A stretch of DNA of 60,124 nt, filler included, from Hausera hauseri (lineage: Eukaryota): the NCBI GenBank assembly GCA_046269625.1. It is 11 parts of 11 records of this genome, joined end to end, with 100 filler letters (N's around TTAATTAATTAA, not from the genome) between each part and the next. Parts side by side here need not be neighbours in the genome. Positions count along the whole stretch, not along the records: positions 33,679 to 38,553 come from JBJURY010407145.1; 10 more parts are not named here. The stretch is one strand, 5' to 3'. This document shows, piece after piece, positions 13,926 through 53,992 of the stretch (its first letter is position 1; every line of letters starts with the position of its first letter). The notes under the pieces were generated by a model. The model ran no database searches. It saw nothing but the letters and a program-made list of their open reading frames with translations, and was not told where the DNA came from. A program made the translations under genes and the position numbers.

Positions 13926-14116
13926 AGGTTCCACGTTACAAAAAAATAAAATAAATAAAATCAGTAAAATTAATTAAATAACCACAAAAATTCAAAAGAC
14001 AGAAAAAAATAGCAAANNNNNNNNNNNNNNNNNNNNNNNNNNNNNNNNNNNNNNNNNNNNTTAATTAATTAANNNNNNNNNNNNNNNNNNNNNNNNNNNN
14101 NNNNNNNNNNNNNNNN

Positions 14117-14280: not shown

Positions 14281-14339
14281 AAGGAAATTAACAATCCAAA
14301 ATTCAATTTTCTGTAGTGACTTCCATGATCTGCCTAACG

Positions 14340-14974
14340 TTCCTGCAGCACTGATTACCAACATATATCCCAAATAATTCTGGTGACATTTTCTACCAAC
14401 CCGTTAGATTGCTTTTGGAACGGACTGCTGAATATTTGTTTAATTCCATATTCTTTGCAAAACTTTCAAATTTGGCTTCCCCAAAAACACTTTACGTTGT
14501 CGGTCAAGATTGATTTCGGTTTTCCAAATATGTAAATCCATATCACCAACATGTACTCGATTACTTTTTATTCCTTCTGCGTCCTTATTTCTGTTAAACT
14601 CACCGGTTTTGAACACTGATCAATAATAACCAACATATGCGGATAGATGCTATCTTTGTCTCCGACATACACAATATCCATTACCAGTTGGTCCGGAAAA
14701 TTATCACTCTTAGTAGGAATGAACTTTTCGTCTTTTCGGTTGGATTTTTCCGACATAAGCATACTTTACATTTTCCGATGACAACTACTTTTGACAAACC
14801 CGAAACTGCGAAGTGATTTTGAATATATTGTTTTGTTTTCATATCTAAATGGCATAGATCCACATGTTTCTTCCGGACGAAATATTTCCGCATATTTTTT
14901 GAAATTACTGGTAGTCTGTAGCTCTGATCTTTATGTATTAAAAGGCTGCCTGTAATTTCCAATTTGTCGATCAT
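14340..14974 (-). pseudogene. Ty3/gypsy integrase remnant (second family)
   Basis: KHVDLCHL..KCKVC zinc site, LVMDIVYV..HMLVIIDQCSK, KPKSILTDN and SSPFQKQSNGLVE. Confidence 0.85.
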
Positions 14975-24208: not shown

Positions 24209-27200
24209 TTATTCCAAATGCCAATATCCGTACGCCCAACTCTTATTTTGCCCCACCCACTCACGCTTATCATCATTGCATGATAAAGCGACTTTTGTAT
24301 TGTTCACCGTATACAGCTGGTGCTCAATCGATTGGGTGATCCTTTGTGTCACATCAGCTTTGATTGTCCTCCTTCTGCTGCTTCTTCATAGATACGGCGA
24401 TAATAACCGTGGTTTATTTCCGACTGAGACAAGTGAACTCCTTTGGCGCGAAATTTCGGTCCACCGTTTGTTAAAACCCTATAACATTTTGGCCGTAGAA
24501 ATAACCATTCCCGATACTGAGCCCGACCTTCACTTTCATTCTTGAAGCAGCCAATTTTGTTTACGATACGGCTGCTGTACAGCGGATGATCCGATGGATA
24601 GTTGAACGTGTCCAATAATCCATCTAACTGCATTCGCTGCAAGTTGCTGTTCGCTATTGACTTTTTTCAGCCGCAGGAAAAAACTGTCTGTGCCACCGAA
24701 AATTATACTAATGTAACAGCCGTCAAACATTTGCCGGTAACGTGCCAAATTGCGATACTGTAGCTCATACATTCGCAGCTTTCTCAGGTTCAATACCACT
24801 TGTCCGATTTAACTTGGCCGGTCCAGAACGACTTCTTCTCTGTTTAACAGCACCGCAACCAATCCATCGGCAATGTGCATTGACCGCCCAAACTGCGCCT
24901 TACTCGTGTACATGACCAACCGCATTTTGCTATTGCATAGACGTACACTAAGTCGCTTTTTCAGATTCTTCATTGTTTTTCCGTAGAGAGAATTGTTTTT
25001 CAGCTTGTAGTAGTCCTTTTCGAACTTTGTACAATCTGTGGCTAGTTTCTCCGAATTTCCATATATGTACGCCTTGAATATTGGAGCCCTACAAAATCGG
25101 ATTGCACGATGCAGCTGTATGACGCGTACATGGAGCTGCATGGAAAACTGTAGCAGACGCCAACGGATCACGTAATTCAGCTTCGGTTCAGGCGTCATGA
25201 GCAGTTTCTTTACTTTTGAGCCTGGCGGACATTGGTTAAATGGTGCGATCGGAAAATTGTCCAAAACGTCATGCAGCTCATTTGGTACCACGAGATCGAC
25301 TTCCATCAGGTGTCTGACTGAGCATTCCATGTCTGCTGGTGGTAGGTTGACCATTATGTCGTCCAGATCTTGTCTGTCTACAACACATTCGAATGAACCG
25401 TATGGCAAGGGTTGCGAAAGCGCCCAGCCGTACAGGTCATTAATATCAATACACAGCAGTGATGTGGTATCGGTAGCACGGACCTGATGCTTGTTGTCAT
25501 ATGTCATGCAGCCGTGAATACCAACATCAAACAGCCGGTACATTTCCAGGTCTTGCAGCAGCTCAATATCTCGATCCAGTGACATTAGAACTGACGCCCA
25601 ACTCATTGCAGGTATGGAATAAAAGTTAAGTGGCTCCAGCCTATCTTCAGCCAATGTTTTCGTTCGAAACACTTGGAACACATCGGTTAATAAGTATTTG
25701 TCGAGTTTAAGATACTGGAGCATGTAATCCAACATGTTTCTACAGCCAAGTTCTGTCAAAAACCTCTGTGAATTTCGGTAATCATCCTCTGAGATACCTC
25801 TCCATCGTCTCGGTAATTCCTCTGCTGTCCGCAATCGCTCATATTATGTTACAAAGTCATATGGAAATATGCTTTTGCTAAGTGCAAAATGTGCGGGGAA
25901 ATGCGTCAGTGCTATCGGAACATCTGGTAAGGAATTTGTCAGCTTTGCCAATGATTCATTGAGAAATTGCAATGAATCAAGGAAGGGTACCTGGAACCGG
26001 TTTATGCGAGCAGACAGTGACAGGTATTTCTCCATCGTAGTCGAAATTATGGATAATTCCCAGTGCGGAAATCCATTTAATGCCCATTTAAATATGGTGA
26101 CAGTCACAAGCCCTGAAGTTATGAAATACCACCGGTAAGAATGGCTACGCACGTCTTGTCAAATTGCATGAATTACATGCTGCTCCGAAATATCGACTAG
26201 TAAAATGATCGTGATCCGGTACGAGCCGTTCCAGTGCATCAAACGGTAATATTTTGTGGCACAAGTAATATTCATCTGTGACTGCAAACGTCAGACTTTC
26301 ATCTTCATCTGTCCACATCAGTGGTTTATTGCTATTTCTACTGTACCAGGGGGGCGATTTCAGTTTCCACTATGGTTTGCAACTTCTGCAAGAAATCGCG
26401 TACACAATTCCATCTGTAAAAAACATAATATTGAGGTTGACCTGCGGCTTTTATTGGGACAACCAACATACCGACGGCGATTGGAACATGTTTTTGGTCA
26501 TGTATGTTGTGCCGTGGTAAGATAGCTTCGATATCGGCATATACTACACATGCACGACTGTCTGTTTTTGATCAATCAGTGAACCTGAGTTTCTGTGTGA
26601 CGGGCATGATATACGTTGTTTTTCCTGACAAATTTTTTTGCACAGAGTGGCATGTTTCGCCAATGTTGTTTCCGACCTGAATCCTAAAAGACATGCAGAA
26701 CACCATTTACACTGTATCCGTTTTTGGAGGAAATAGTCATGCGCCATGTTCAGTAGTCTGTTCAAATTTGTCACTGCAACGAAATGGTACTTTTCTTTTT
26801 GTTCCAGTAGCAAAAAATTTACTGAGCGGCCATTTGGGTTCTGACTACGATAGATTATATCCACATGGGGTTTTTGTACATTTCTTTATCCTCCGGTATT
26901 TCTACGATTGTGTTGTACCGGAACACGTTGATTGCCAGTATCAGATTACGCCGTTCAAAAGCCGGAATGGATTTAAATTTCATCGGAATCCAGCTTCCAT
27001 CGAAATCCAATTCGGAAAAATATTTCTGATACTGTTTTGGACGAGATGCATTGTGTCTGTCCACTTCGTCATATTTCAATACCCCCAGAATACTGTAAAG
27101 AAAACAGTATTAATTGTTAGTATTTTTTACATTAACTACCGCCAGAGACTGCTTCAGGGCTGCAGGTGTCGGTACGAATGATCGTCCAGACAAATATATT

Positions 27201-28093: not shown

Positions 28094-28212
28094 TCTTCGT
28101 CTAGATTTTCTTCTCGTCGTCTTTTACATTCTTCCATCCATTTCGTCAGCCATTCCTTTCGATCATCGGCCTTATTTTTACCGAAAGCAAATATGATACT
28201 TTTTTCGTCTTT
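28094..28212 (-). pseudogene. TOP2: DNA topoisomerase II fragment, overlapping the end of the long ORF in another frame
   Basis: KDEKSIIFAFGKNKADDRKEWLTKWMEECKRRREENLDE matches the TOP2 motif DDAAISLAFSKKQIDDRKEWLTNFMEDRRQR. Confidence 0.85.
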
Positions 28213-31200
28213 TTTGTTCTGCTTTCATAAGATAAATCGGAAATGTCAATTGCAAATTCCCGATCACATGATGACCCAGAAGAGTTTATTCGATTATCGT
28301 TACTCGTACCATTAATTGAAAGTTTCATATCCTCGTCTTGCTTTTCAAATTCTTGATTACAATTAATATTCTTTTTCAAATTTTGTCTCTCTTTTACATC
28401 ACACATATCTGCCAAATGAAGCTCATGGCTTATTTCCGAAAGCTTATCAAGTACTTTTGGTATCAGAGATTGACCAAGAGCTTTACGCATTTCAAGGTCA
28501 AATAAATTTTCATCTCTCGTTAACTGGCTTTCAGAAGATATATCAGCATTGCCTACTTCATTTTCGTTGGGGAATAAACTTATTTTTCCTTCAACACTGC
28601 TTGTAAGCTCTAGAGACGTCGGAGTAATTATTTCATCTTTTGACTCTTTTTTTTCGTAATACAAATCCGATACGTTTCTATCAGTATCTGTGTCAAATGG
28701 CACATCAACTGATTTCGATTTATCTTCATCAATTCGTGATTCAGTCTGTTCATAGAAATCCTGTCCGAGGTTTCTATGTATTTGAGAAATAGTTACATCT
28801 TCTTTCATAACTCTTTCCGTATCATAAACTTTATTAGCCATCCGATATTGTTCAGAAGTTTCAAACATCTGAACATGATCTGAAACCCCAGAAATATTGG
28901 TTTCAAGCATACTTTCATGTTTTAGTACCGGGCTTTCCAAAGAAACCTCAGAAGTATCATTATCAGTTTCACTTTTCAAATACCCATCTTCAACGTTTTC
29001 TTTAAGTTCTGCTGAATACAAAAATCTATTATCATCTTTTGTTGCTTTTCTCTTTTTCAATAAATCAAACATATCTCTATCCATTTTATTTTTAGAAATG
29101 TGTGCTGTTTCATCGTCCAAATTGTCATAAAGTTGCGGGGATTTTGGAAAATAATTTAATTCAATTTCAGTATCTATTTCTTCGTTAGAAAGTAAACAAC
29201 GATTCAGGGTTTTAGATTCAAGACGACTTGTGTTCACTGTCTTTTCTAAATCTTTAATTGTGCAAGCTTTGCATTTAACAAGGTCGTCAACATGTTTGGG
29301 TATACTTTCAGTATTTTGAGCATTTAATTTTTCATGAATGTTGCATTCTGATTCGAATACATAACTCTGTTGAGTTTCATTTTCAGTTTCAATATTTATT
29401 CCTTTTCGGATCTTACAAGAATCGGCTAATTGACTAGTATTTGTACTACTATCAATTTCCAGACCGTCGATCTTCGTCTCGCATTTTTTTATTTTTTCGG
29501 GCATCGCACAACTTTCAGCAGCGCTATGTGTATCTATTCTATCCGATGCAATTTCCTCCACTGACATATCATCATTTGTACTTTTGGATTCGCTTTCAAA
29601 CGGACTTGTTTTCATATTATCATCCTTGCTGAATTTTGTGTCTTCACCAGAATCAATAAAATGTCTTTCTTCGTTCTTGAAATTTGCATATTGTTCATTT
29701 TCTAGTAAAGTGCTGTCAACAGTCGATATTTGGCCTTCAGATTGAATCTTTACCCTGCTCTCGTTTGTGTATTCATCAAATTGAGAAGATTTATCAACAT
29801 CATCTTCATTCATATATTTTAAATTATCCTCAATTAGAATTACGTTTTGTAATGATAAGCCATGATCCGTGTGTTTGATTTCATCATTAGAATCTACCTT
29901 TATTGATGAATCATCAATGCAAAATTCAACATGAATGCCACCATATTGAGATTTGATTTCTTCAGAAACATCAAAACCTTTATGTTTTCCCACATTAAAT
30001 CTATTCAAATTGTCTTCAACTTCATCCAAAATATTTAATCCCTTTACAGGATTTTCCATATTTCTGTCAATTGTCATTTTCTGTTTATTTTCCGCATCTG
30101 GGTCAGTTCGCCTTTCCGATGATGCACCAATAACATCTTTATCTTCAATGTAAAAATTATACACACCGGTTGGAAAAATTTCAGATGAATGACTGTGGAA
30201 TTCTCTTTTAATCAAACTTTCTGCTACGTTATTTTCTATTTCGTTATTTATGCTTCTTGACGATTTGTTCGCAGCTGAAAGTTCGTAGGATTTATTAAGT
30301 AGCTCACTTTCGTTATTGACACCATCTTTCAAGGCGCTGTAATCATCGGTACTGGAAAAATTGACGCAGACCTCTTTACCGTGAACAATTAAGAATTTAC
30401 AACTGTCTTTATCCTTATTATCACTGTGAAGTCCATCGGATGTTGCAATACTGTTCAGACTGAGTCTGTCTAAATCCGATTCTTTCAATATTTCCTGTTC
30501 AAATAATTTACTGAGATTTTTATTTCCGGCAGTATTTATCACAGGTAAAAATAATGCATTCCGAACTTCATTTTCGTTTCTGATGTCGGGTAGTTCTTTA
30601 ATTCCCGGTAAAGGTTCAGCTTCGTCGTCGTTTTTCTGTGGTAATTCTTTCGATTCGGAATGATCACTAACGGATAAATCCAATGACAACGATTTGCAAA
30701 AATAAATACTTATATTCGATTCATGATCTCGTGACAGATTTACATTGGATGGGGATTCTGGAGTAATGGCTCTCCCCATGATTTCATCTTTTATTTTTCT
30801 TGAATCATCGACTGGATTACTTCCTTTAACTGTCGTTACAAATTTAGATTCCTGATAATTTATTTCCTCCAATTTTTCCGACATTTTCAAAGGTTTTTCA
30901 TTAATAATAGGTTCATTTATTTCTACTTTATCTTCATCAAACGACAACGAAACTCCACATGAATCTGATGATTTCCCATTATCATTGTCACTTTTATTTT
31001 CTGTTAATGGAATATTCGATTTTTCATTAACAGCTTTGTTCAATTCTACTGTCGAATTCAAAGGGGTTTCGTCGGAACCATTTAAAGTTATAAATTCTTG
31101 TATCGCAACCTTTTCTGAATCTTTGTCTACCGTTAAGGACACACTGAACAAGTTTGTTGGTTTTACATTTTCGGCATGGTTTTCCTTATCCAACTCTAAC

Positions 31201-32889
31201 TGTACATCAACCTGTGATGTTAAAGTGACGTTTTCGGCTCCAACATCAATATTACAAACATTCAGTTTTTCCGATTTTTTCAAATCAATATCAGCCGCCT
31301 GATTCAATACGTTCTGAACAATACTTAGATTTTGTTGATCGATTGATTCATCAGTTGAACCAGACTGTAAAACTTGTAAACTACATGAATTTTTAGATTC
31401 AAACTCGTAATCATCTGGTTTAATATATGATGGACCCATTGTAGAAAACCTGGGTATTGTATCTATTTCGTTCACAAGATTTTCTACAACATTTGGCCTT
31501 TGTAATTGTAAGTTCGATGATACAACAAATGTTCCTTTATTACCTTCAAATTCAACTTCAGTATTTAAAAAGTCCATTTTTAACTCTTTCAAATTTTGCT
31601 CATATGGCGGACTTTCAAACTGTTCTGGAGTTTTATCGGCCATTTTCAGGAAATTTGTTGACTGAACTTGGTCAATTTCGTTCGGAATGTTTCTTCGACG
31701 ATTCTTAATGTTTTCAATAAATGTTTTACAGAAGTCCTGCAACTCTGATTTGTCATTGAAAGTACTGTCAATAATAATATTCCACATCTCGGCATTGTTC
31801 CAGCTTTGATTAATCACCAATTTTTGTTTGTCGAGCGGTACAAAATCGGAAAATTTCGGACAAAATAATTCCGTAAGACAATGCAATAAAATTTTCTTCT
31901 CGATAAAATCTCTTTTGGAATCAAAATTTTCGATTATATAATTCCAAACTGTCAAAAAATTCCCATGACATAAATCTATTAAAAATGACGGAAATTTGAT
32001 GATAGGGACAAGTTTTAACGTAATCTACAATACGTGAAAATATTTCCATTTCATTCATTTTCAACGAAATAAGAGACTTGTACAAATTCTTCAATTTGGT
32101 TAACACGAAACACGATTGAGGACAAACTCCATGATTAAAATTATTAAAAATTGATTGATAAATTTGTTGGAAAGCATCCAATTCCAAGTTGTTCAGAAAA
32201 TATGCGAGAACACAACTGCTATCCTTAGTGCAGTCACTAATTAGGGCAAATAATATAAGATGGACTTTAACATCAATATTGAAATCATTATTTCCAATAT
32301 AATAGGTCAACAATACAACACCTATTTTATGACAATTTGTCTCGAAAAACGATGGCGACATTGACAAATTTAACAAAACTGAACTGAGAACCACAGATAA
32401 ACTCTCCGTATACATCGGATTTGATGACACAATTTTACAGAAAATGAAGCACCATTTTTCAACAGTAGGCGATTCAACATTGAACAATTCACTGAACAAT
32501 TCGTTGCTTCTCTGATTTTCAAAACATAATTCTCTAATTATTTCTTTCAAAACAACTCCAAATTCATTTCCCTGATTGTCGATTGGAATAAACAATGACG
32601 GAATTGATATGTCCAATACATGTCGGTTGAATATGATCATTTCAAATTCACCTTTAATTACAATGAGTATGATTCCCACGTTTCTACTATACAAGTTCAG
32701 TATTTCCTTCTCATTTCTCTTTCCATCTGAATATCGAGAGGAATTCTTTCTCACCAGATTCCCTTCATTATACTTTGAACGGGATTCTCTTGCAAGAGTT
32801 CCACCTGAGATGCCAAATGTTATTCTCAGTGTTTCATCATCATTTCTTTTTAATACTTTACTTTCCTTTCGGTCCATTTTCTTTAACAC
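28146..32889 (-). CDS. Very large unknown protein: helical/hydrophobic N-terminal part (322-aa ORF) plus a 1269-aa acidic, Ser/Asn/Glu/Lys-rich part, probably one gene split by a frameshift or small intron
   Basis: The two long open frames overlap at 31921-31955. No recognisable domain. Confidence 0.7.
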
Positions 32890-33678
32890 AGATAAAATGC
32901 AACTTTAACGCGGATAAAAGACAACTTTCTATTCAAATTTTGAGAATATCGATTCAACACGATTTCTAATTATGTATTTGGTCTTTTCATTCACAATTTC
33001 CTTATTGAAAACGTTTTAAACAAATAACAAAAACTCATATAAAGTTCACAAAATAAAGGAAACTTTACACAATTTACATGAGAAAAGTCATCTCGCTTTA
33101 TAATTCCTAGCTACGATTTATTTTTCGTCGATTTGATAGTCACAAGCCATGCATGTTCTGATAACGTTTGTTCCATAAGTCTATAGAATTTGTTATTATT
33201 AGAATTATCGTTGTTTGGCCGAAATCGTGATCTACACCGCGATACACCATGGTCAGCCGTCTCAGCCCTCACCTTTGATTTTAGTTAATTATTTTTGGTC
33301 TATACAATCACCTTAAAATTCAGTGAAACACCTGAATTTATGGATTCTCGAATATTTGACTTGTAAACCGATAATCGAACTTCTGACGTCATAATCGGAC
33401 TCCCCATACATGTTTTCCTATCTACCTACGTTTAAAGATTTATCGATTCTTGCACACCTCACCTTGAAAATCAAGTTAATTAAAGCGCGCACACATTTGT
33501 ACATTTTTCAATGTTAATTTACTCTTTAAGGATTTATCGAACATGGTCCATTTTATGCAAGGTTTTCACAGATGCGTANNNNNNNNNNNNNNNNNNNNNN
33601 NNNNNNNNNNNNNNNNNNNNNNTTAATTAATTAANNNNNNNNNNNNNNNNNNNNNNNNNNNNNNNNNNNNNNNNNNNN

Positions 33679-34587
33679 CTATAAAAAGCCATATCTTTGT
33701 TGTCCCTTTCCCTTTAATAAACAGTATCAAATATATTATCAAACTATGGTTAATGGTTATATGTGGTCAACATTGTCAAATGGACCAGAGATAATGAAAA
33801 GGTCCCTAATAGTACCAGCAACAATGGTGTCAATGAAAACAACGTCATTTACTTCAAGATACAAACAAAAAATAATAACTAGTTTATCCGTTGAGACTCA
33901 GTCAAAAATTGCTAAAGAATTAGATATAATCATACACCCAACAGTATATTCGCTGATTGTTACCATATCAGATGTAAAAAATACGAATATAAAATTCGAG
34001 TGTTTCCTTCACAACAGGATGATAAGTGAAGGAGTGATTACATGAGAAAAACCAACATCGGCCTGTATGTTCTTAAAGGCTGATACAAATTATAAAGTCA
34101 TTATAACAGAATTGGATAAAGATGAACAAAATCTACAAATAATCTATCGTATGAGAAAAACATCGAAACAGGCCATTATGACTACTACGAAAGCTATAAA
34201 AATAACAACTACACAAAATTATCAAAGTAATTCAAATATGTATCTGTGTATAACGATCTTATTATATATACTTTTAGTATTAGTAGTCTATTGTTACCCT
34301 TAATAATTTATTACTCCAAAATAAGGTGGCGACAACGCAGAACAAAAGAAATATTGAGTCAATTAAATATGTTAAGAAAGGATTCCCAAGAGTCGTTAAC
34401 CAATATAAGTGCGCCTTTTGTTAAAAGTCCAAGGTATGTCAAAAGATTTGCCGACCAAAAACGACAACCCCGACCGCTTAAGGACATAACCGTTTGTCTG
34501 TATACAAAAATTCGAAATCATCTCGCAAAATTCGTAGCGACCTACTTAAGAAATAGACAATCAAAATACGATAATTTTCCTTTTTAA
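33679..34587 (+). pseudogene. Frameshifted putative type I membrane protein (ectodomain, Thr-rich stalk, TM helix, basic tail)
   Basis: Three consecutive plus-strand ORF pieces: MTTTKAIKITTTQ stalk, hydrophobic YLCITILLYILLVLVV / LLLPLIIYY, then SKIRWRQRR. Confidence 0.5.
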
Positions 34588-34924
34588 AGCCTCTTGGCTA
34601 ATATTAATACCTTTTCTTTTAGTCCAAGAAGGTAGAGAAAAGGCCGAAAGATCCTATTCCTTCTACAACCATATCTTATCTAATCTTTGGACCAATTCCT
34701 ATAAAGATTATTATTATTATTGAAAGGCCTCTTATATTCCCAATAATTTAAAAGGGTACTCAGTCAATCAGAGAAGTAGTCTTATAATCAAATTACGACT
34801 CAATTCAATAAATCTTTCAGATCTAATCGATACTTGTAGGTAAACACATAAAATATATATTTCAGTAGCAAAAGGAACCATACAGTTGAAAAGTAAATCA
34901 TACTCTAAAGGAATCATCGACACA

Positions 34925-36628
34925 ATGGAAATCCTAAACCGAATAATAATCCGTTTAGACCCACGATTATATACTAACGCTACTCTAACCCTGCGAACAT
35001 GTGAAGAACCATTCCCAATAATCTACGTAGAAGTAATTAAGAAGGATTTAGTGCCACGTTGAGATTACCAGATTCTGAAATACACTACTCCAAGACCTAA
35101 AGAAATTGATGTGGAAAAAGGAATGACATTCGCAAGAAGACCCACAAAATCAAAAACTGATATAATAATTATGGTTGTGAATCCCATATATCTGTTTACT
35201 CCAATTAGAAACAAAGAAATGATAACAATAGAAATTACCTTAATGGAAGGTAAGATAATCGTGGATGGAATTCTGTCCCAGAGAAAAAATAGACAATAAT
35301 AACAGCCATATAACAAAGCTAAAAGAGAAAGACATCATTGGACAAAAGGATTCCTACCATAAAGAACTCTATATAAGAGAAGAAATTGTTGGAAAAGTAG
35401 TCGTTGGCATCGACCTTTATCATATTTTTGCAAATATCTTCAGATATGATTATAACAATCTGCTTGGAATTAGAGAATTTTTGTATCATAAAAAAATTAA
35501 TCCCCAACGAGAATACTCAGCTAAGCAAATTTTTACCAAATACAATGGTAATATTTACCCTCAAAGGGAAAGAGATAAGGCTCCAACAGTATTAAACATT
35601 TGTAATTCCATCTCAGAATATACAAACGAATGTTTCGAAACCCCAATAGATATACAAGAGTCCTCTGAATCCCAACTTATAACTCCTCATCAACCACAAA
35701 TTCGACAAATGTCTACGTGTTTAGAACCCTCTCAATTAACATCAACTCCCATATCCGGAGATTGTTATATTGATCTGAAACCATTAATAGTTGCCAGTTT
35801 CCCAGAATATATTTCCGTGGATCTGACGACGAAAAGGAAGAGGAGACTTTCAAAGACAGAAACTATCACTCTAAAAAACGTATTAAAAAGAAAGGACAAT
35901 GGTTTCATATTAAATCTGTCGATTGTCAAGATTCTAAAGGAATCATAGCATCATCTAAGGATGGAGATGTGCAATCAAAGCCATCAAAGTCAGACTAATA
36001 TGACACTAAACCGACAGATTTTGTATTAATTTGTCAGATAAATTCAAAGAAAATCAAGAATTGATTGATGGCACTCAGTTTAGACAAGAGCTTTCTATGT
36101 TGTTGTCACCAACAATTAGCCATCAACAATTTGCTAATCTATTGGACTTGTTGTTGATCTATACTGCTGGTACAAGCCCATATCAGAATGTCGTACGATA
36201 CATAATTTATCGGTATGCCGACAGAGTAAGAATGGTTTGAGAAGATCCTGAAGTGATTGTTACTCTACAACATTATAACCAAGATTTTTATGTCCTAAGG
36301 ATTGGAGTTACGCCTTTATGGACGCACTCTGATGGAATATGAAACTATATATGAAGTAGGTATGTGGGTAAACAGATACAATCCCGTATGTATTGCTTAT
36401 AGACAGCCTGAACAAAAAATAATCGACGAAATTATAACTGATGTAAGACGGAAGGCAACACAAGAAGCTGAACATCAACATCAGGCTCAAGAAGTAGAAG
36501 CTGTAATGAATATTTCTATATCAGAACAAATGTAAACGGATAAGAGAAATCGTTGTAGACCAAAAGGAACGACGAAACTTTACCAATTAAAAGGCAGAAA
36601 GGCCAGAAATGATGAGTGTGTCCGAAGA
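34925..36628 (+). pseudogene. Decayed N-terminal part of a virus-like polyprotein, function unknown
   Basis: A chain of plus-strand ORF pieces from the ATG at 34925, separated by single stops or frameshifts and running into the Bcl-2-like/env segment. Confidence 0.5.
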
Positions 36629-36661
36629 TTGCTAACAACAGAAGTTAAATACGACGTAGAT

Positions 36662-37063
36662 AATGCATCGTTAACAACATTACTACAAACTTTGTTAGCA
36701 AGAATGCACAATGCATTCATTGAGTTTAATGCTAATCTACAAATACCAGATTCACCAATGCAAATTAAAAGGAATGAAATCGCAAAGATTAGTGAACAAT
36801 TTGCAGATATTTCTACGGATGAGAGGATAAATGGAATCCAGGAAAGAAACATACTGTGTAGAATAATGGGAACCGGCATATCCCGAAATAAAATTGTAAC
36901 AACAACATCTTATTTCTTGTATAAAATAATAGTGATGAATGGAATCAATCCAAGTCAAGAAGAGATAGAGAGGAATATGGAAATTGCCACTATAACGTTA
37001 AAAGCTAATGTCGACGAATGGGTAAAATGTAGAGGTGGATGGATTACTAGTTTAATTCAGACG
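36662..37063 (+). pseudogene. Bcl-2-like domain within the polyprotein
   Basis: BH3-like IKRNEIAKISEQF, BH1-like IMGTGISRNKIVTTTSYFL and BH2-like NVDEWVKCRGGWITSL (W-x4-GGW). BH1-to-BH2 spacing is 43 aa versus 42 in Bcl-xL. Confidence 0.6.
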
Positions 37064-37159
37064 ACAATAGGCAAATATGCAGCAGTCAAGAAACGACAGA
37101 CAGAATATTTCCCACTTCAACAATCAGCGAGACAACGAATTATACAGCCTAAGCTTGAT

Positions 37160-38553
37160 TTATCATGGCTAACTAAAGTTATACCCATAGTCCTTCTGTT
37201 TAGTCTGATGCCAAAAGCATTTTCGATTACTGCTTATGATTGCAGTCAAGCTAAGTAAGGTCCAATATATTCTTTACTGGACTTAGAAAAATGTCCATTT
37301 GCTAATCCAACGTCGTTAACTACCATACCAGAAAAGGAATATTATGTTTACCATTAATCAGAATTTGTAAAGACAAAGGTAAAGGAATGTTTTGTCAGAA
37401 GAAATCAATTTCATTTTATTTGTGGATACTGGTACAGGAACTCAGCTATAACAGAAACAACTACTCCGTTTGAGCCACTTCCAATAAGTAAACGGATGTG
37501 CATGGAAGCATTTGTTACAAAGCAGATTAACATTGGAAACATTCGGCTAAGGGCTTACAAAGGGAAAATTATTAATAAAAGAATTTTTGTAGCTGGTTCA
37601 ATTGCTAAAACAGGATACTGTAAAGGAGAATCATATAACATAAACGGTGAAATATTGGATAATGTGATAGCTACTGAAGACTACCAAGTCGAGTTAAGGG
37701 AATACGATGCACTCTTCGAAATAACATATAGAAAAATGATGACATTTCCCGAATGTGACTATTATAATAAAGAATGTGATACGGGTGAATCGATCATGTC
37801 ATATGAAGTTGACAGAGATCGATGTCATCTGGCATTATTAAAGGTTGGAAAGTTTAACAAGACCAAAGACGGATATATAAAGAAGAGATATCCAAAAGTC
37901 GAATAGGTCGAGTATTAGACGCAATTGACACACTATCTGTAGTATACTCAGCAGATCATACCAAAGTGATGCGATTTAAATTAGAAGGCGATACTAAGAG
38001 ATGTGATAAAACGGTATATCGAACAAATTACAAAGGGATATTCCTGTCCACAACAAGAATTGAAGAAGCTAAAAGACAAATTGATAAATCGGAAGTAAAA
38101 CCCCATTTGTATTTTGATAATAAAATAGATTTTATCTATCATTTCCAACAGGAAAATATTTATACGATGTATTGAGAAATAATCTTAAATGATTGTAAAT
38201 TGAATCGCGAAATAATTAGAAACATAATATATCTGTTGGCTATAACAGTCGGGATAATAAAAGATCAAGCTGAATCAGTGATACCAAAGGGAAATTTGCA
38301 CGAACAATGGGTGAAACTTTTGTAACGTTCGAATGCGCTAGAGTAGCTGTCAAACTCAGACCAACTGCTAAATGTACGATGGAGTTACCTGTCTGGTACA
38401 AAGAAAAGCCGCGTATCCTCCAACTGATTACGCGGATACTATTGGACCCGGCAGAAAAACCATACGTGCATCAAAATTTCACATATACCATGTCACCCGC
38501 ATTTTGATTAAGCGATAACTTATGGATAAGTCTGCCAAAAAGGGAACAAATTA
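37160..38553 (+). pseudogene. Chuvirus-like (class III, gB-like) envelope glycoprotein with internal signal peptide, copy 1
   Basis: LSWLTKVIPIVLLFSLMPKAFS|ITAYDCSQAK*GPIYSLLDLEKCP..KECFVRR..FICG..C..AGSI..GYCKG..CDY..ECD..YFDNKIDF..GETFVTFECARVAVKLR..CTMELPV..ITRIL. This is the typical YDC/SLLD..C N-terminus and Cys pattern. Confidence 0.85.
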
Positions 38554-40112: not shown

Positions 40113-41330
40113 ATGGCAGAGACGCGATCTACTAACATGGCGATCAACGCTTCAAGCGACTTCTTCGAGAAGAAATTGATGCCGTAAGAATTCCAGAAAG
40201 GTGACAACGTGGAAACCTTTATTGGAAAATACGAGAGTTACTTTGACTTCATAAAGATATCAGAGACGGACAGGGAAACTGCGGTCCTGTGTCTGATGGC
40301 GGATGAAGCACAGGAAAAATACAATCTGGTAAACCAAAAAGTTAAAGGGTACAAAAACCGGTTGAGAAAAGCATTTTCAAAACCCACAGCGCTGTGCGAA
40401 GATATGCATGAGGCCTTGAACTACAGAATGAGGGGGGGGCAGAACCGGACGCCTACTTCAACAAAATTAAACAACTGGCAAAGACCACTTTTAGCCACAA
40501 AGTAACACTGGAAGCTCTAACAGAAGAATTGATGATCCACTGTTGCGACAATCCAGAGATGAGAAAGGAAATTTACCGCTGTGATGAAAAAAGCGTAGAA
40601 TAAATCAAAGAGAAAATACGAAAAGTCCACGAAGTGGTAACAAAGACGGAAGAGATAAACAGAGGCAGAGAATACACTAGAGAGGGTCGACGGAGTTATC
40701 GGGATGTGGCAATGTACAAATTTGACAAACTAAGACGGGAAAGGAAGGATTTCAAACTGCACAATAAGCAGGCAAAGAGCACGATGAAATGCTGGTCGTG
40801 CCAAAAAGACGGGCATACAAGCGGGACGTGCAACCTCCAACATGCACCAAGATGTTTTGGTTGCGGGAAAGAAGGAAACATTAACAGAAATTGCCCGGAA
40901 AGGAAACCCATAATATTCTATGGGTGTGGTCAGCAAGGACACATAAGGTGAAATAGCATAAACATAAAATGCAATATATGTCACAATAGAGGGCACGGAG
41001 ACGAAGAGTGCTATACAAAATTGGACAAGAGCAGAAGAGGACAAAATACGTATACCGACAATTTCAAATGTGCGGGGAATGGTCAGAAAAGATATGGAGA
41101 GCGGATAAACAGCAGGCACGCATACGTTGCAAATATTGACGAGGACTATAAAGAATCCATCACAGAGTCGACAAACCCAAAAGACAGAGCCTCGACAGAA
41201 GAGGAGCTAGTCGAGGCATTATTTAAATAAATCCAAAACCTCCCAAAATACTGAAAGGAACGGATAAGCTATTGAAGAAATAAAGGAAAGAACAGAGGAA
41301 AGAGTACAAAGGTTTATGAAAACGATACGC
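40113..41330 (+). pseudogene. LTR-retrotransposon gag remnant with four CCHC-type zinc knuckles
   Basis: CWSCQKDGHTSGTC, CFGCGKEGNINRNC, FYGCGQQGHIR and CNICHNRGHGDEEC, preceded by a gag-like helical region. Confidence 0.8.
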
Positions 41331-44394: not shown

Positions 44395-45054
44395 TTTTTT
44401 TGTTTGCGTGGTGCACTCACATCTACCTACTAACATTGCACCTAATAGTGAGGCCTCTGCTGGAATTGTAAAATTAAGTTTTGGCGGGAAATTTTGTCGC
44501 GTAACTTTATAAGTATATTGAGACATTCGTTCAATTCTGATTTCAGGAATTTGACGATATGGTTGAATTTCACTTTTATATATATTTAGTTGGTCTAAAA
44601 TATGGTCTGATGCATGATATCGATGTTCTGATAATTGTAGCCAAATACCGGTATTGACACCTAATGGAACATGTGACCATACTTTGATGTTAGCTGACTT
44701 TTCACCCTGTTTGACAGTTATACTATAACTGGTTATAGGAAGTCTTTCCAAATTCCATAAATAACCATTTTGAAATTCCTAAGAACCACTGATGATATCA
44801 GGAAGTGTGTCGATGTTTCATGAGTACGTGACGTAAACGAGATTTTTGAAAACAGTTTGAATTTGATTAATGGACTGGCCTTTGCTCGAGCCATCACAAA
44901 AGAATAATTCACCGTGAAACACATCTAAAGTGAGTTGCTTTTTGTCTTTATATAACGACCATGTTAAACGAAAAATGGGTTTAGTGCGACTAGCTTTCAT
45001 GTGGTAAATAGATGTATCTTGATAAGGCCATTCTGATAATAACTGCAGATCCAT
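44395..45054 (-). pseudogene. Unknown decayed ORF of about 220 codons (one frame, two in-frame stops)
   Basis: ORFs 44818-45054 and 44347-44751 share a frame, separated by TGA and TAG only. Confidence 0.4.
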
Positions 45055-48000
45055 TCTGGGTCCAGCCTATGTGCCCTACGCGCCGGCAGCGGACGCCCTG
45101 CCGTGCCCAACCAAATGGGCCAGAGGGCGACGGTCGATGCCGGCACCACATCACCCCCCGTGACAAAGTTAAAACTATGAAAAGCGAAAGGACAGAGAGA
45201 AAAAATCGCAAAACGAAAAGTGTGTTAGATGAGTTTAATGTGAATAAGACGTTGAATACCTTGGACTGATTTTTCCCTGCTATACTTGCTGAATGTGACT
45301 CTGCGTGTTGCGTGTTTTGCGATGTGTTTGTTTGCAGTGATTGAGGTTGGGGAAAAATTGTTAGATTTTGATGTAAGTGTTGTGTCGTGCTAAGATGAAT
45401 CGGAATAAAGAGAAGGAGAAGACGAAGAATAAAGGGGGTTTTTAAAGACGGATGGTTAAAGGCACTGAAAAGAGTGTTAGAAGACGAAGGAGTGATGACA
45501 GGTGTAGTGGTGGATAAAGAAAGAGAGGAGAAAGTTGGAGTATAGATTGGAATTGTGTTGAATGAAAAAGTGGAAGGGAAAGATGGTACAGAGGTAGTGG
45601 TAGGAATAAAAGTAGAAGGTGTATAAAATGATGGAGCAGGACTAGGTTCAGAAGAGGAAGGTGGAAATGATGTAGCAATAGATGTAGTGATAGTAGGGAG
45701 TGGATGAGTAAGAAAAGAGGTTGAAGTGTCGGTTGGTAAGGTGTCGTCGACAAAGAAAGCGGGCTTTAAGTTGGTAATGTGTACTGTAAAATCTTTGCCG
45801 TCTTTAGAGATAATGGCGTTGTGTGAGTGCAGCTGTATCAGTTTATAGGGCCCCAGGTACCGCTGCTGAAAACCTCAAGGTGCTTGATTCTTTAGCCATA
45901 CGAATTTTGCCGAATACAAATTTTCGGGTAAGTATGTTTTGTCTTTGTGAAGTATCCTGCAGAACGAATCTTTGCTGACCTTAACAAAGTGATTTTGCGC
46001 TGCCCGTATTGTCTCATCCACAGGAGTGTCGTCTAGGATGGTTAGTTCGAATAATGATCGGACAGGAGCTCCGAATAAGGCTTTAGTAGGTGAGCATCCT
46101 GTGAAAGTGGACGGAGTGTTCCGCTAGCCAAGCAGAACGAACGGAAGAAGATTTGTCCAACCAATGTTGGACTCTGCGAGGATTCGTAGTGACGTTTTAA
46201 GGTTCGGTGGAAACGTTCTAGAAGGCCATTCGATTGGGGTGATAAGGCGTAGTATGTATGTTATGGATCCCCAATCGGTTAACAAGGGATTTGAACAGGT
46301 TTGATTCAAACTGTAGATCCTGGTCCGTGATGATGAAGCGAGGTAATCCAAATCTGCTAATCCATGTGCGAATGAAAACGTCAGCTATGATGTCGGTGTT
46401 TGTGATCCGCAGAGGGATGGATTCTGGCCATCGCGAGGAACGGTCCATCATGGTGAGGATGAATTGATGACCGTTGTCTGGACGAAGAGCGCCAACGATG
46501 TCGATATGCACGGATTCGAAACGCAATGTGCAGGGAAAGTGGAATAGTGGTGGCTTTAAATGCTTAGCTGTTTTGTATTTTTGACAAGCCACACACTCCT
46601 TAACCTATGCCTGCACATCAGAGCGCATTGGCGGCCATATTACTTGTCGATGGAGTAAACGAAAAGTGGCTTAATACCAGGATGGTGTAGTGAATGAACG
46701 CTATGAAATGCTTGCTTTTGTAATGATGGTGCTAGATTTACTAGGGAATGGCCTGGTTTGGAGGTGTCTAAAGCCACGACGTCAACGATTGTGCAAGACT
46801 TGAAAGAATTAAGCATATCATGGGGTGGCGGTTCTGTTTAAGTTAATCTTGCATAAAGATCGGTGAAAAATTAATCGAACTAACCGATCTAGATAAAAGA
46901 TTAGCAACCAAATTGGTAACCCGTTAATATGTTTAATTTCGAAGTTAAATGTCGATAAGTATGATATTTGTCGTTCTTGGCGTGTGGAAGGGTGTTTCAT
47001 AGCCATGATGTTAAGTAATGGCTTGTGATCAGTTTGTAGAGTAAAATGACTAGCTACTAGTAGCTGTAAGAAATGCTTTAAAGCGAAACGATGGCCAATA
47101 GTTCTCGATCGAACGTGGAATATCTGGTTTCAGGTGCTGTTAGCTTGCGAGAGAAAACTTCTGATGGTTGATTTTTTCCCTTGTAGATATGGTGCAGTAC
47201 AGCACCTACAGCAGTGGTTGACGCGTCTGTAGTAAGGATGAGTTCTGCATCAGGCTTGGGGAAAGCTAGAATATCTACGGATTTGATGCCTTCGCGTAGC
47301 TTGTCAAATTTGTCAACTAATTCAGGTGTCCACTGGATTGACTGATGTTTCTTGCCGCCGCTTAGGTGTGCTAATGGTGCGGTCAATTCGGAGCAATATA
47401 GTACATATTTATGCACAAAGTGTAAGGTACCAAGGAAACTGCGCATTTCCATGGTTGTACGTGGCAATTGGATGTTTTTAAGAGCTTCGACTCGGTCTGA
47501 TTGGGGAGAATGACCGTCTGGTGTAATAATGTGGCCTAAAAAGTTAATGCGCTTTTTGAAGAAATGGCATTTGTCGAAATTGACTTGGAGATTATGGTGG
47601 TTATGAAGTTGGAATATTGCACGAATGTGTTCTTCGTGTTGTTTGGCCAAAGATGAAACGACTATAATATCATCGATATAAGGGTGTGCAAACGGGAAAT
47701 CGGAAAGAATTGAATCGATGTGCCGCTGAAAAGTTTGTGCGGCATTTCGCAAATTGAATGGCATAAACAGGTATTCGTAGAGGCCAAAAGGAGTAGTTAC
47801 TGCAGTTTTTTTTATGTCTTCGGGTGCTACCGGTATTTGATGGTATGCTTTAGCTAAATCAATGGTTAAATAGATGGTGGTTAAATTAAGACGATGCAAG
47901 ATAACCTTGATGAGTGGTAAAGGATACGCGTTTATGATAGTCAAGTTGTTTAGCTGTCGGTAGTCACCGCATGGTCTAAAGGTACCGTCCTTTTTTGTAC

Positions 48001-48405
48001 AACATGTAACGGTGATGACCAAGGAGATTTGGAACGGAATACTATGCCGAAACGTTCTAGCTCAAGAAATTCGGCTTCTACGGCCTGTCCACGACGAGGT
48101 AGCAGAGGCTGTACTTTTTGGCGCATTGGACGTTGGTGCTGTGTGACTATGTGGTGTAAAGGGCTGTTTGCGGAAGTAAAAGTACGGTCTTTTTTAAGTA
48201 CGCGAGGACATGAGGTGTTGACGAATTGCTGTATAGTTGTAGGTAACTGTGCGAGATTTGGTGGAACTGGTGAAACGGCTTGCGTAGTAGCAGATGCAAT
48301 GTGTGAGTTGTTTGGTGATGTGCAGTCAAGTGGTATTTGGTGTAAGATGGTTGAATTGAAAATGGTGTTGGCTGAGGTATTTTCGTCAAATGAGTTAGCA
48401 TTGGT
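45055..48405 (-). mobile_element. Ty3/gypsy pol (RT-RNase H-integrase) with PPT and GC-rich 3' LTR stub starting at 45150; same family as 7490-12500
   Basis: RPCGDYRQLN..IDLAKAYHQIP..PYIDDII, TDAST..RYSTFDRELL and VHIDIVG..TTPYHP. FLGHIITPDGHSPQ is shared with the other copy. GGGGGGTGA|TGTGGTGCCG marks the LTR start. Confidence 0.95.
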
Positions 48406-49175
48406 GACTATCAGATCAAGTTGAAAGAATATGAGGTATTATTCGACTCACAGACAAAATTGATGACGACTATGAGTGAATGCGAGTATGATAGTGGAGA
48501 ATGTGATACTGGATAATCGAAAATGACATGGGAAACCACTGCAAGTAAATGTCAGTTGACACTGTTACGAGAAGGAAAGTTTAATAAAACAGTAGGAGAA
48601 ACGGCAGAAAAAGAAACAGCTACATATAAAGAAGGGACAAAGGAAGATAAGATGACGGAGGTGGCTACAATTGTATATTCGAAAAACCCAGAAGAGATTA
48701 TGCGATTCAAAATCACGGGAGTAGCAAATAAGTGTAACGAAGAGATCCAAAACTAACTATAAAGGTATTTTCTTATCAAGAAAAGAAATACCCGGTTCAA
48801 AAACCAAAATAGATAAGAAAGACATAAAGTTGACGCAATACTTTGATAATAAGATCGATTTTCTAGTCAATTATGTAAGGAAGATAATTCGAGGGTTATA
48901 TAGAGAAATAAAAATGCATGAATGTAAGCTGAATTATGAAATAATGCGCAATAAAATGGCATTAGTAATAACGAATCCGGGCATGGTAGCGCCCGTAATG
49001 CCATTCGGCGACGGAATTATTAGCAGAGTGATGGGCGAGGTATTGATAACAACAGAATGTAAGAAGGTAGAAGTATCAATTAGGCTAACAGAAGAATGTA
49101 CAATGGAATTACTTGTGGTTTACCATACAGAACCAAGATATGTGATTCCAGTAACCAGAATATTATTATATATTA
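48406..49175 (+). pseudogene. Chuvirus-like envelope glycoprotein, copy 2 (internal fragment)
   Basis: DYQIKLKEYEVLF..ECEYDSGECDTG*S..CQLTLLREGKFNKT..MRFK..TNYKGIFLS..YFDNKIDF..MGEVLITTECKKVEV..CTMEL..VTRILL is collinear with copy 1. Confidence 0.88.
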
Positions 49176-50047
49176 ACGTTGTGAAGGGGAAACTCGATTG
49201 ATGATATTTAAATTGTATATTAATTTAATTGTATATTAATTGTATATTAATTTAATTGTATATTAATTTAAAAAGGGNNNNNNNNNNNNNNNNNNNNNNN
49301 NNNNNNNNNNNNNNNNNNNNNTTAATTAATTAANNNNNNNNNNNNNNNNNNNNNNNNNNNNNNNNNNNNNNNNNNNNCCTAGATATACCATAATTAGTAC
49401 AAAATATATCAGAGGGGCCAGTTAAAAGTATGTTATACTGAAAGAAATCCCAAAATCTACTATTTGCATACTTATTAAATGCAGTCATAAATCAGTTTTA
49501 AGCAGTCGAGTTCTCTGGGCTCAAGCTCGTCTTAGATGTTGTTTGGGGCTTTCCTAGGTCACAATGGTGATATGCAGCAGTAGAAACAAAAAAATACAAT
49601 TTGGTAAAGACTAATTTGCTGACACCACAAAGTGAAAAAAATGAAGAACTACCCGTGCATATGGGCACATTTTAGTGTCTACGAAACAAGTGGTTCACAC
49701 CTTTTAGAGACGCTGACCCCAAACAGTAATACGGTGTGAATGTACAATAAAATGCCAAGACATGCTATGCAATTTTCATTAATGCATATGTTGTGAATCG
49801 GAACTGAAGTAGATATAACATGCATATATGTGCCCTCTGATAGTTTGTATTTAATTATGGAAATAACGCAGCTTAAATAAAGCACAAGGGGAAGTTAAGA
49901 CAATGGGAAAACCACAGGAAAGAAAGAAAGAGCAGAAGTGTCATGAGCCAGGATCGAACCCACGACTTCTTAGGGGGAGCTAAATTATAGACTAAATTAA
50001 GTAAATATTTTATGATCTTCTTCTTCTTCTTCTCGTTCGTTACATGT

Positions 50048-53000
50048 CTAAATCTGCAGACCAGCCTCTTGGATAAATTTGGCGGTGTGGTGTAAGTCAC
50101 CGGCTGAACCATATAATTTGCTCTCCAATTCTGCACCATGGGGCCAATATTTTTCTCGCAGGGCTCTGAGGTTGGTACAGTTCTGAAGAACGTGTTCTAC
50201 AGTCTGGGCCTCTTGTGCACATTCACACAGAGCAGTATTACCGATTTTAAATTTGGAGAACAGGTGGCCTCTTAAGCGGTTGTGACCCGTTCTTAGCCGG
50301 AAAATGGTAACCTGCTCTTGTCGGTCCAGTCTGTGGTAGTCATCATTGGGTGGCCTAGGGGGCTTCCTTTTGGTGTTAATAATAACTTTCCTCTGCCTGT
50401 AGGAAATGGGTGCGTCTGGCTGCTCTTGTTGGGTGCCTTCTTTGGCCAGCGTGTCAGCTCTTTCATTGCCAGGTATGCCACAGTGTGATGGTATCCATTG
50501 CATAACTATCCTATGTTGTTTGCAGATCCTAGTCAATGAGTCATTTAACTGTGGCAACTTTCCACTCTCTAGTGATTCAAGTACTGATCTGGCATCTGTG
50601 AGAAAGACTACAGGGTACGCATAATTTAAATTCAGGCTCTGTGCAGCAGCAGCAATGGCCTTCACCTCTGCATCAAAATTGCTGCAAATTTTCCCAGTGG
50701 GTATGCTGATGGTTTCTTTGGTGTGGTCTGGGTATTCAATCAGCACTCCAGCACCTCCGTTTTGAATGGCATTTTCTGCTGATCCATCTGTGTACACACG
50801 GATCCAAGCATCGCCAGGAAATTCTTCTTCGAGGAGACAAAGTGTTACTGCTCTTTTTTGAAGGTCATTCTGGTGGTTACAAATTCCTTTTATTGTGGTT
50901 CTTATGGTTATTTTGAGACCTGATCTTTCAGTCCATGGCTGAAGCTCTGGCACTGTGGATAGTGGCATGGATACTTCTGGAAGCTCCATTATCTGACGGC
51001 GTAGATATTTTGTCTTATGTACAAAGCTACTCCTCTTGATGCGACTTAATGATAAGTTTTTAAATTTATCAGCCATTGGGTGGTCAGGAATAGATTTGAA
51101 TTTTTCTCCATGAATAATAGCTTTTGTGTCTCTGCGCTCCTGCAGTGGCTGTATGTTTGTAGATTTTTCCATCTGTGTAATAGGAGTTGATTTCAGAGCA
51201 CCAGTTATTATTCGGAGTGCTTGATTTTGGACTTTGTCTAAACTATGCAATGTGGTGTTTGACGCAGAGCCCCATGCTGTAGAACCATATTCCAGGTGAG
51301 GACGAACTCCTTGCTGATACAGCTTCTTAAGTATTTCTTCAGTGGCACCCCACGTTGTTCCGCTTAACTTCCTCATTATGGCTAATTTTCTCCTTGCTTT
51401 TGTTTCTGCCTTACTGATTTGTGGTTTCCATGTGAGCCTGCTATCAAAGGTAACTCCCAGGTATGTTGGCTGATCATCATCTTCTAAAGCTTTTCCATCC
51501 ATATAAATTTTTCCTGGCTTCTGCTGGGATAGTGTGAATGTTGTAGTTGATGTCTTTTCAGTATTGATGCTGACACACCATTTACTGGCCCATGTAGTCA
51601 GTGCATCCACAGCTTTCTGCATACGTTTTGTGGCAGTGGTAGCAAATTCATCTGTGCACCACATGACTAGGTCATCAGCATACAATGCAGTTTTCACTCC
51701 ATAGGGTATCTCTGAAATAAGGTCATTAATGAAAATGAGGAAGAGGGTAGGAGACAGTACACCTCCTTGTGGAACTCCTTGCTGTAGTAAGACTTTTCTG
51801 CTCTTGAGACCATCTAATTGTACTCTGGCTCTTCTATTGTGCAAGTAGGCTTTAATCCACTTGAGCATGCTACCACTGATATTACACTTCATCATTTTCA
51901 AAAGCAGACCATCTTTCCAGACCTTGTCAAAAGCCTTTCGAAGGTCAACCCATGTGGCCATTACCAGCTTTCTATCCTGAAAGGCATCTTCAATGTCTTG
52001 AGATAGGTAGGTAGCTTGATCCTCTGTGCAGTAGCACTGTCTAAATCCTGCTTGCTGTGGTGCTAGGTGATTTCCACTTTCTAAGTGCCATTTCAGTCTA
52101 CAGTTGATAATCCGTTCCATTGTTTTACAAAGACAGCTAGTAAGGCTGATGGGGCGATAGCTAGAGGCCAGTGTGCTGTCCTTTCCATGTTTGTGTAGGG
52201 GCACCATGATTGCTTCTCTCCAGCTCTGGGGCACTACTCCTGTTGCCCAACTTATGTTGAAGATGTTAAGCAACTTAGCTCTTGCCCCAGATCCTAGATT
52301 TTTAATCATTTCATTAGAGATTCCGTCAGGGCCTGGACTTGTCTTTAGTTTCAATTTACTCTGTGCCATTTCCAGTTCTCTGAGTGTCAGTGGTAAAACC
52401 ATTATCTCTGATACCTGTTTATCAGTAGTAGTTTGTTTCTCTTGATTTAACTCACGTTTCCTTTTCTGAGGTACTTCTGTGTGACTGTCTTCTGCAAAAA
52501 TTCTTGCGAAATGGTTTGCTGCTTGTTTGCCAGTAAGTGTTTTGCCATTTTCCTGAAGTGTAATCTTTGTGGTTCTGGAGCTGCCTTCGTCACTTAACTG
52601 GTTGACCAATTTCCAAAGCTTTCTACTGTCTTTGTCCATGTTAAGCTTCTCGGTCTTCTCCTTCCAGCTCTTGCGCTTTGCTTGCAGTTTTGCTCTTTGA
52701 AACTTGGCTTTAGCATGTTGGTGGCTCTTGTGGTTTTCTTGATTTGGGTTGTCTTCCGTCTGCCTCCTGGTAGTTTCAACCTCTTCCTGTAGTTTTGCAA
52801 GATCATCACTCCAGTAAGGCCTGTAGTTCTTGTAAGCGCCTCTTGGTATTGTTTCTTTTGCTGTCTGGAGAATACAGGTGGTGAATTCCTTCACAATGCT
52901 GTTAATATCTTTGCCTTCTGTGACAATCTGTCCTGCGCGTACACTGGTGAGGTGGTTGAACATATTCCAGTTTGCCTTTTTATAATTCCACCTGGGGAGA

Positions 53001-53878: not shown

Positions 53879-53992
53879 GTACGGGGGATGCGTGACATTC
53901 TGGTTGCTGGTGCACCTCTTGGTCGAATGCCGCCGACTTCAGCACCTGTCCTTGCTTGAGCATGACAGTGATCTTGCTCGATGGGTAGGCCC

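Follow-up and report, generated by a model that had tools for sequence, protein, structure and literature searches.

A dead contig of Hausera hauseri that probably carries the leader and env region of a Burro-type retrotransposon

A decayed leader-plus-env region

We analyzed a contig of 4,875 bases from the Hausera hauseri assembly GCA_046269625.1 (JBJURY010407145.1), which occupies positions 33679-38553 of a 60,124-nucleotide window made of 11 unrelated contigs with N spacers between them; as an earlier note on this DNA had recognized, it is a complete contig bounded by such spacers. We found that the part from 36052 to the contig end is a broken copy of a repeated leader-plus-env region that probably belongs to a Burro-type Ty3/Gypsy long terminal repeat (LTR) retrotransposon, with the layout Gag, cargo, ubiquitin-like domain, Bcl-2-like domain and envelope glycoprotein (Env), and with pol expected beyond the 3' end. 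The earlier note had assigned the contig to an unknown enveloped endogenous element. Since the order Gag, ubiquitin-like, Bcl-2-like and Env is already in print for Burro, "unknown" was too strong, and the contig is probably a new dead family member of an already described kind and not an unknown virus.

The coding state of the contig was assessed by comparing its least-cost coding path with those of 100 first-order Markov resamples. The cheapest plus-strand path had 11 in-frame stops and seven frameshifts at a cost of 21.5, whereas the minus-strand path cost 56.5 and the resamples averaged 76.7 +/- 4.8, none of the 100 being equally open. The result was also 0 of 100 for each sub-region, namely remnant A, remnant B with and without the stretch that the earlier note had called a spacer, frame C with remnant D (A to D are described below), and the leader with env. 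The "spacer" by itself was matched in openness by 16 of the 100 resamples and was too short to call. In agreement with the earlier claim that all coding remnants are intronless and on the plus strand, this strand reads as coding DNA in decay over its whole length. The contig copy is dead and no protein can be made from it.

A remnant of a class III fusion glycoprotein ectodomain (gB/chuvirus-G type) occupies 37226-38553 on the plus strand. The contig was scanned against Pfam in nine pieces, and PF24664, a family named for Monjiviricetes fusion proteins, matched above its cut-off in three successive frames (E 2e-16, 1e-7 and 5e-9), covering profile positions 6-207, 255-354 and 365-425 of 653. 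The remnant contains four in-frame stops and two frameshifts. The contig end cuts env about 200 profile positions short of the end of the model and, because the match ends at position 425 of 653, the contig stops inside the ectodomain. An internal hydrophobic segment on the plus strand at the start of the PF24664 match (37178-37234) is likely the env signal sequence, and the Bcl-2-like domain and the start of env share one reading frame. These matches bear out the fusion glycoprotein that the earlier note had proposed, as well as its statement that reverse transcriptase (RT) and integrase are absent from the contig: RT, protease and integrase gave no Pfam match in the nine pieces and no tblastn match with four pol pieces taken from elsewhere in the window. 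The pieces likewise gave no Pfam match to an RNA-dependent RNA polymerase (RdRp), L or nucleoprotein (N), and no Gag was found in the contig by alignment to the relative described next or by tblastn.

The closest relative is P0001, a protein of 1,130 residues encoded on a single 4,786-base ENA contig and the sole relative among 4,318 candidates in a search of longer proteins. It is 71-76% identical to the contig over 36052-37885 and 66% over 37840-38169, and it has no similarity upstream of 36052. The N-terminus of P0001 weakly matches the Gypsy-derived capsid dArc2 (E 0.0068), and one zinc knuckle follows the capsid (zf-CCHC, above the Pfam cut-off, E 2.5e-4). Matches to ubiquitin (E 0.031), Bcl-2 (E 0.055) and PF24664 (E 6e-19) come next in that order, all in one frame; Env starts near residue 810, and the protein ends early inside it, so that P0001 likewise does not represent an intact gene. 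Since P0001 carries Gag in frame upstream of the leader and env and fits the Burro layout, the contig likely represents the middle of an element with pol downstream. The earlier note had offered either the 3' accessory region of an env-bearing LTR retrotransposon or an RNA-virus segment; the in-frame Gag favors the LTR element, while the 3' accessory geometry is likely wrong and the RNA-virus option found no support.

Further searches returned few relatives. A second protein search, of 6,505 candidates, yielded only P0001 itself, and when the 303-residue leader was scanned against 1.84 billion representatives, two matches resulted, P0001 and P0002. The latter was rejected as a leader relative, being a tandem-repeat protein whose E-value of 8.9e-6 was summed over nine short stretches at 28% identity. 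In scans for related loci, the pattern matches confirmed among viral contigs numbered 0, 0 of 9 and 0 of 182 (these scans reach close relatives only), and those among metagenome contigs 0 of 43 and 0 of 545.

Three domains were assigned, with differing firmness, to the leader between 36052 and 37060, all on the plus strand. The first (36052-36237) corresponds to P0001 residues 396-457; the contig is 71% identical to P0001 over residues 396-479, and this part is helical in a low-confidence model and has no Pfam match, so its family is left unassigned. The second (36241-36400) is likely a broken ubiquitin-like domain, based on the alignment and on the Pfam ubiquitin match to P0001 residues 473-522; relative to P0001 it has lost about 20 codons and shifts frame near 36300, and the two contig pieces alone gave no Pfam ubiquitin match. 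The third (36660-37060), an open frame, is likely a Bcl-2-like helical domain. Pfam Bcl-2 matched it in the contig with an E-value of 0.043, and in P0001 the match covered residues 651-748 and model positions 6-100 of 100. Sequences that we take to be BH1-like (36875-36895) and BH2-like (37019-37042) motifs occur in the expected order. The Bcl-2-like domain named in the earlier note is thus favored by the Pfam match and the motifs, but the match is weak (14.8 bits against a cut-off of 31.4). Taken singly, neither the ubiquitin nor the Bcl-2 match would be accepted, but they were two of just five Pfam families that reached E<=1 on P0001, and they stand in the published Burro order.

Searches of PDB with the contig pieces gave no matches, and an Atlas search with the P0001 leader gave no usable match. 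When the better of two AlphaFold models was searched with Foldseek, Bcl-2-family chains made up 9 of the 46 matches listed and 5 of the top 10, all at E>=1. VIA-align gave no significant match, and Bcl-2-family chains were absent among its best 50 listed. Non-significant fold searches from low-confidence models are no evidence either way.

Comparison with Burro and other env-bearing elements

A literature search on Gypsy polyproteins with a Bcl-2-like domain and a fusion glycoprotein returned a single source, PMC6431247. According to its Burro section, which cites Grohme et al. 2018 and Jurka 2007, Burro and GYPSM1 are giant Gypsy-like LTR retrotransposons of planarians that exceed 30 kb. The Burro open reading frame 1 (ORF1) is described there as 4,873-5,140 residues long (4,873 in Burro1), with an N-terminal Gag bearing two or three CCHC knuckles, a Ubi2/SUMO-like motif between MATH and BCL-2, and BIR, RING and ankyrin cargo. 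The region between BCL2 and the protease matches fusion glycoproteins of arthropod and fish mononegaviruses, and env is followed in frame by protease, dUTPase, RT, RNase H and integrase (PMC6431247). The same section describes accessory ORFs upstream and, in Dugesia japonica, decayed fragments with stops and frameshifts. P0001 shares with Burro, as described, an N-terminal Gag with CCHC, and P0001 and the contig share with it a mononegavirus-like Env in frame with the cargo before it, in which the likely ubiquitin/SUMO-like and BCL2-like domains have the expected order and place; many copies and decayed fragments are common to both as well, and Burro has accessory ORFs upstream.

A number of observations weigh against the assignment to a Burro-type element. 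Neither pol nor LTRs were seen, as the contig and P0001 both end inside env, and P0001 rests on a single contig, possibly of the very organism that the window represents. Among 4,228 candidates with lengths of 1,979-5,000 residues there was no relative; the upper limit leaves out the 5,140-residue ORF1. P0001 differs from Burro in having one knuckle, no MATH match and about 810 residues before Env, and is more compact; BIR, RING and ankyrin were not seen in the contig or in P0001, both of which end inside env. The ubiquitin (E 0.031) and Bcl-2 (E 0.043-0.055) matches lie far under the Pfam cut-offs, and the comparison with Burro was drawn after these weak matches had been seen and was made by published description, without direct sequence alignment. 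The AlphaFold models were poor, with predicted local distance difference test (pLDDT) values of 34 and 42, and Foldseek gave no match at E<=0.001 with the pLDDT-42 model. NCBIfam gave no match and PHROGs was uninformative.

Elements with the order GAG-ENV-POL and a gB-type env have been listed from Platyhelminthes, Bryozoa and Nematoda in PMC13524379, with nine elements of Platyhelminthes, six of them in Schmidtea mediterranea, and at least ten of Bryozoa. With 3-kb flanks counted in, the Schmidtea elements measure about 14.5-18 kb (PMC13524379); subtraction of the flanks leaves roughly 8.5-12 kb of coding DNA, and an ORF1 of the P0001 type would fall near the low end. These "ancient errantiviruses" share with the layout proposed here a gB-type env between Gag and Pol, flanked by a signal peptide or transmembrane segment, but as described in PMC13524379 they are intact, whereas the studied contig is dead and has no pol to place in a tree. 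The main text and seven supplements of PMC13524379 contain no mention of Bcl-2 or ubiquitin. Glycoprotein-derived endogenous viral elements (EVEs) of Jingchuvirales and mosquito BEL/Pao elements share the Pfam glycoprotein family and a multi-copy state in an animal genome (PMC10084718; PMC7642597). Their env, as presented in these sources, is a free-standing captured gene, whereas the env studied here is the last part of a polyprotein of Gag, bearing a Gypsy-type capsid, and cargo.

The junction at 36052 and alternative readings

The contig is a composite joined at 36052. Three observations place the junction at 36044-36055: the similarity to P0001 starts at 36052, the summed contig depth of the public run X1 rises about 170-fold from 19.5 (36010-36043) to 3,314 (36044-36077), and run contigs have loose ends here, 26 before 36052 and 19 before 36055. 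Altogether 8,905 contigs of X1 matched the 33679-38553 stretch. They fell into identity classes of at least 99% (446), 95-99% (1,095), 90-95% (3,376) and below 90% (3,988), so that 7,364 were under 95% alike. Summed depth, which is not copy number, was 5-1,600 in the 14 bins before 35961 and 1,140-26,943 in the 16 bins after it. X1 was the one public sequencing run in which the stretch occurred, it may be the window's own source, and no RNA run was among the matches listed. The run contigs were concentrated from 36052 on, indicating very high repetition of the env-leader family.

Since the depth step coincides with the start of P0001 similarity, most family members carry other sequence upstream, as P0001 does; and since most run contigs leave the contig sequence where P0001 does, the upstream part of the contig is a minority form. 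The earlier note's figure of about 1200 polyprotein codons is correct as a length, but the junction splits them into two parts of different repeat behavior, and the main family therefore does not have these codons as a natural unit. By the note's own account, its reading would fail if the segments mapped to unrelated repeats or host genes and co-occurred nowhere else; our results go part of the way there, as the DNA upstream of 36052 differs from what P0001 and most family contigs have at that place.

The upstream 2.4 kb holds four coding stretches on the plus strand, none assigned to a family. Remnant A (33680-34587) has a beta-rich-looking stretch, a Thr-rich stalk, a transmembrane-like segment (34229-34314) and a basic tail; it contains one stop and one frameshift, the contig start may have removed its 5' end, and it had no Pfam family above cut-off and no match in PDB. 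The transmembrane-like segment agrees with the type I membrane protein that the earlier note had placed here, but no signal peptide was found, nor an N-glycosylation sequon upstream of the segment.

Remnant B (34550-35296) opens with a hydrophobic segment (34565-34627), has three in-frame stops and spans the supposed spacer. The part that was scanned, against Pfam only, had no family at E<=0.1, and a MATH/TRAF reading, considered as Burro carries such a domain, was dropped for lack of a Pfam match. The claim of an AT-rich spacer did not hold, since the frame of remnant B crosses it and its guanine-plus-cytosine content (0.318) is close to that of the ORF before it (0.316; whole contig 0.337). 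A promoter or poly(A) reading of this stretch was also rejected. The words concerned are scattered over the whole contig: TATAAA and AATAAA each occur seven times, and five of the seven AATAAA lie inside the env-leader coding part.

Frame C (35259-35948), an open frame of 229 codons, had no usable match in Pfam, PDB, NCBIfam, PHROGs or Atlas. Contig depth is low over 35568-35873, and one run contig of depth 15 skips the 339 bases of 35543-35881, which may be an insertion peculiar to the contig copy or a deletion in other copies. Remnant D (35822-36051), which is charged and of low complexity, was traced by the coding path and runs up to the junction.

We consider it slightly better than an even chance that the upstream 2.4 kb consists of accessory coding DNA that came from the same element or a sister element and was brought next to 36052 by deletion or recombination. 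It is on the same strand as env, is coding-like, and is itself repetitive, though less so, single places showing variant letters in as many as 16 contigs. At somewhat less than even odds, it is instead an unrelated lower-copy repeat or host-derived coding DNA beside a 5'-truncated element copy, or the contig is an assembly chimera. The sharpness of the junction and its depth step argue for an unrelated origin, as does the fact that P0001 has nothing matching and that no run contig among the matches listed spans the whole stretch. Against it stand the shared strand, the lack of introns, a decay about equal to that of the env part and the repetition of the upstream DNA itself; moreover, accessory ORFs lie upstream of ORF1 in Burro elements, as the Burro section of PMC6431247 describes them.

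A quite unlikely alternative to a Burro-type element is an env-bearing Ty3/Gypsy element of another layout, either a non-autonomous one with Gag and env but without pol or a Gag-Pol-Env errantivirus, in which case P0001 would have arisen by loss of pol and the upstream part of the contig would be the true env leader. Pol was never seen beside the leader and env, the search for longer polyproteins gave no relative, P0001 is a single record, and Gag-Pol-Env is the common order of arthropod gB-type errantiviruses in the material of PMC13524379, all of which fit such a layout. However, most run contigs leave the contig sequence exactly at the P0001 start, making the upstream part the minority form, and Pfam and tblastn found no integrase or other pol remnant in the upstream 2.4 kb. 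A ubiquitin-like and a Bcl-2-like domain before env with pol downstream are, in addition, what the Burro section of PMC6431247 describes.

It is very improbable that the contig derives from a BEL/Pao element with a captured chuvirus-like glycoprotein. Although mosquito BEL/Pao elements carry the same glycoprotein family (PMC13524379; PMC7642597), the P0001 capsid matches, if weakly, the Ty3/Gypsy-derived dArc2 and has one knuckle, no BEL/Pao Pfam family was matched, and the literature search, which returned the Burro review alone, found no report of a Bcl-2-like leader in BEL/Pao elements. An endogenised negative-strand RNA virus segment (a jingchuviral glycoprotein EVE) with a long leader, amplified later, is the least probable origin and highly improbable: the naming of PF24664 and the wide occurrence of chuvirus-like glycoprotein EVEs in arthropod genomes (PMC10084718) would suit it, but P0001 has Gag and a zinc knuckle in frame, the contig has no RdRp or nucleoprotein match, the viral-contig scans, which reach close relatives only, gave no relative, and the presence of thousands of diverged contigs in a single run is in keeping with retrotransposition.

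Proposed working of the family and other features of the window

Judged by the Burro parallel and by general principles of membrane biology, an intact member of the family would make a single long polyprotein, of which the Gag, ubiquitin-like and Bcl-2-like domains would remain cytosolic. The hydrophobic segment at 37178-37234 would thread the Env ectodomain into the endoplasmic reticulum and then be cut by signal peptidase; the cleaved segment may remain attached to the Bcl-2-like domain and anchor its C-terminus in the membrane. Tail-anchored Bcl-2 proteins are an established parallel for such an anchor. The transmembrane helix of Env itself, beyond the contig, would return the chain to the cytosol for protease, RT, RNase H and integrase. 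The Bcl-2-like domain would hold off cell death in the producing cell during particle formation. The ubiquitin-like domain of P0001 has no di-glycine end, which makes cleavage by a host deubiquitinase unlikely; the domain probably serves as an integral interaction module rather than as a cleavage tag.

A Burro-type assignment would provide a further example of a retrotransposon polyprotein that joins a cell-death regulator to a viral fusogen, and P0001 points to a compact form of the Burro layout. For the anti-apoptotic module of Burro1, RING-BIR rather than Bcl-2, a role in supporting planarian stem cells is reported (as cited in PMC13465017), making the Bcl-2-like domain a reasonable second candidate; our literature search found no published test of that domain. 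PMC13524379 presents it as an open question how gB-type Envs of retrotransposons bring about cell entry when herpes-like partner proteins are lacking, and the upstream membrane ORFs are for this reason worth a look. It is nevertheless doubtful that they are accessory surface proteins of a Burro-like subfamily supplying the receptor-binding partner of a gB-type fusogen, and/or that the host is not a planarian. The Burro section of PMC6431247 makes no mention of membrane-spanning upstream ORFs. If the host were indeed not a planarian, the polyprotein Gag-ubiquitin-like-Bcl-2-like-Env, with an env signal doubling as the Bcl-2 membrane anchor, would reach beyond the only lineage in which we found it described. 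The contig copy is dead and truncated, and its own value is modest.

Elsewhere in the window, a second, more distant env fragment was found on the plus strand at 48380-49171 (PF24664, E 1.4e-20). It is 41-52% identical to P0001 and 43-50% to the env of the studied contig, indicating that there are at least two env families in the genome. This fragment is on a separate contig and adjoins decayed Gypsy pol on the opposite strand (about 45900-48400, minus), probably as a nested insertion. A decayed Gag-like ORF at 40188-41000 (plus strand) has two exact CCHC knuckles (40790 and 40970) and further knuckle-like motifs; its similarity to P0001 is not significant (E 0.39), and pol was not seen downstream of it.

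An internal check of the 4.9-kb contig revealed no repeats longer than 35 bases, there was no Rfam match anywhere in the window, and an exact look-up of seven ORFs of the window found none of them. Pfam identified Gypsy pol pieces, a long interspersed nuclear element (LINE) ORF and a DNA polymerase B remnant in other contigs, and the window as a whole appears to be repeat-rich DNA of an animal-like genome. On the minus strand, the DNA polymerase B remnant (24809-25843, E 1.6e-7) is of the organellar/viral type and likely belongs to a Polinton/Maverick. Two long overlapping open frames of 327 and 1,292 codons (28146-32904, minus), the second acidic and of low complexity, had no Pfam match and are likely a large host exon. 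A decayed transposase-like coding stretch (58200-59800, minus) had no Pfam match above cut-off; it is followed by a cysteine motif that we take to be PHD-finger-like, and it presumably resembles EnSpm/CACTA-type elements. The LINE ORF (50048-53938, minus) is unbroken over 1,296 codons and encodes endonuclease, RT and RNase H. Finally, three related Gypsy pol-bearing contigs, none of them linked to the studied contig, lie at 4600-14016, 14117-18893 and 44395-49277 (minus), the first and third being about 66% identical in DNA.

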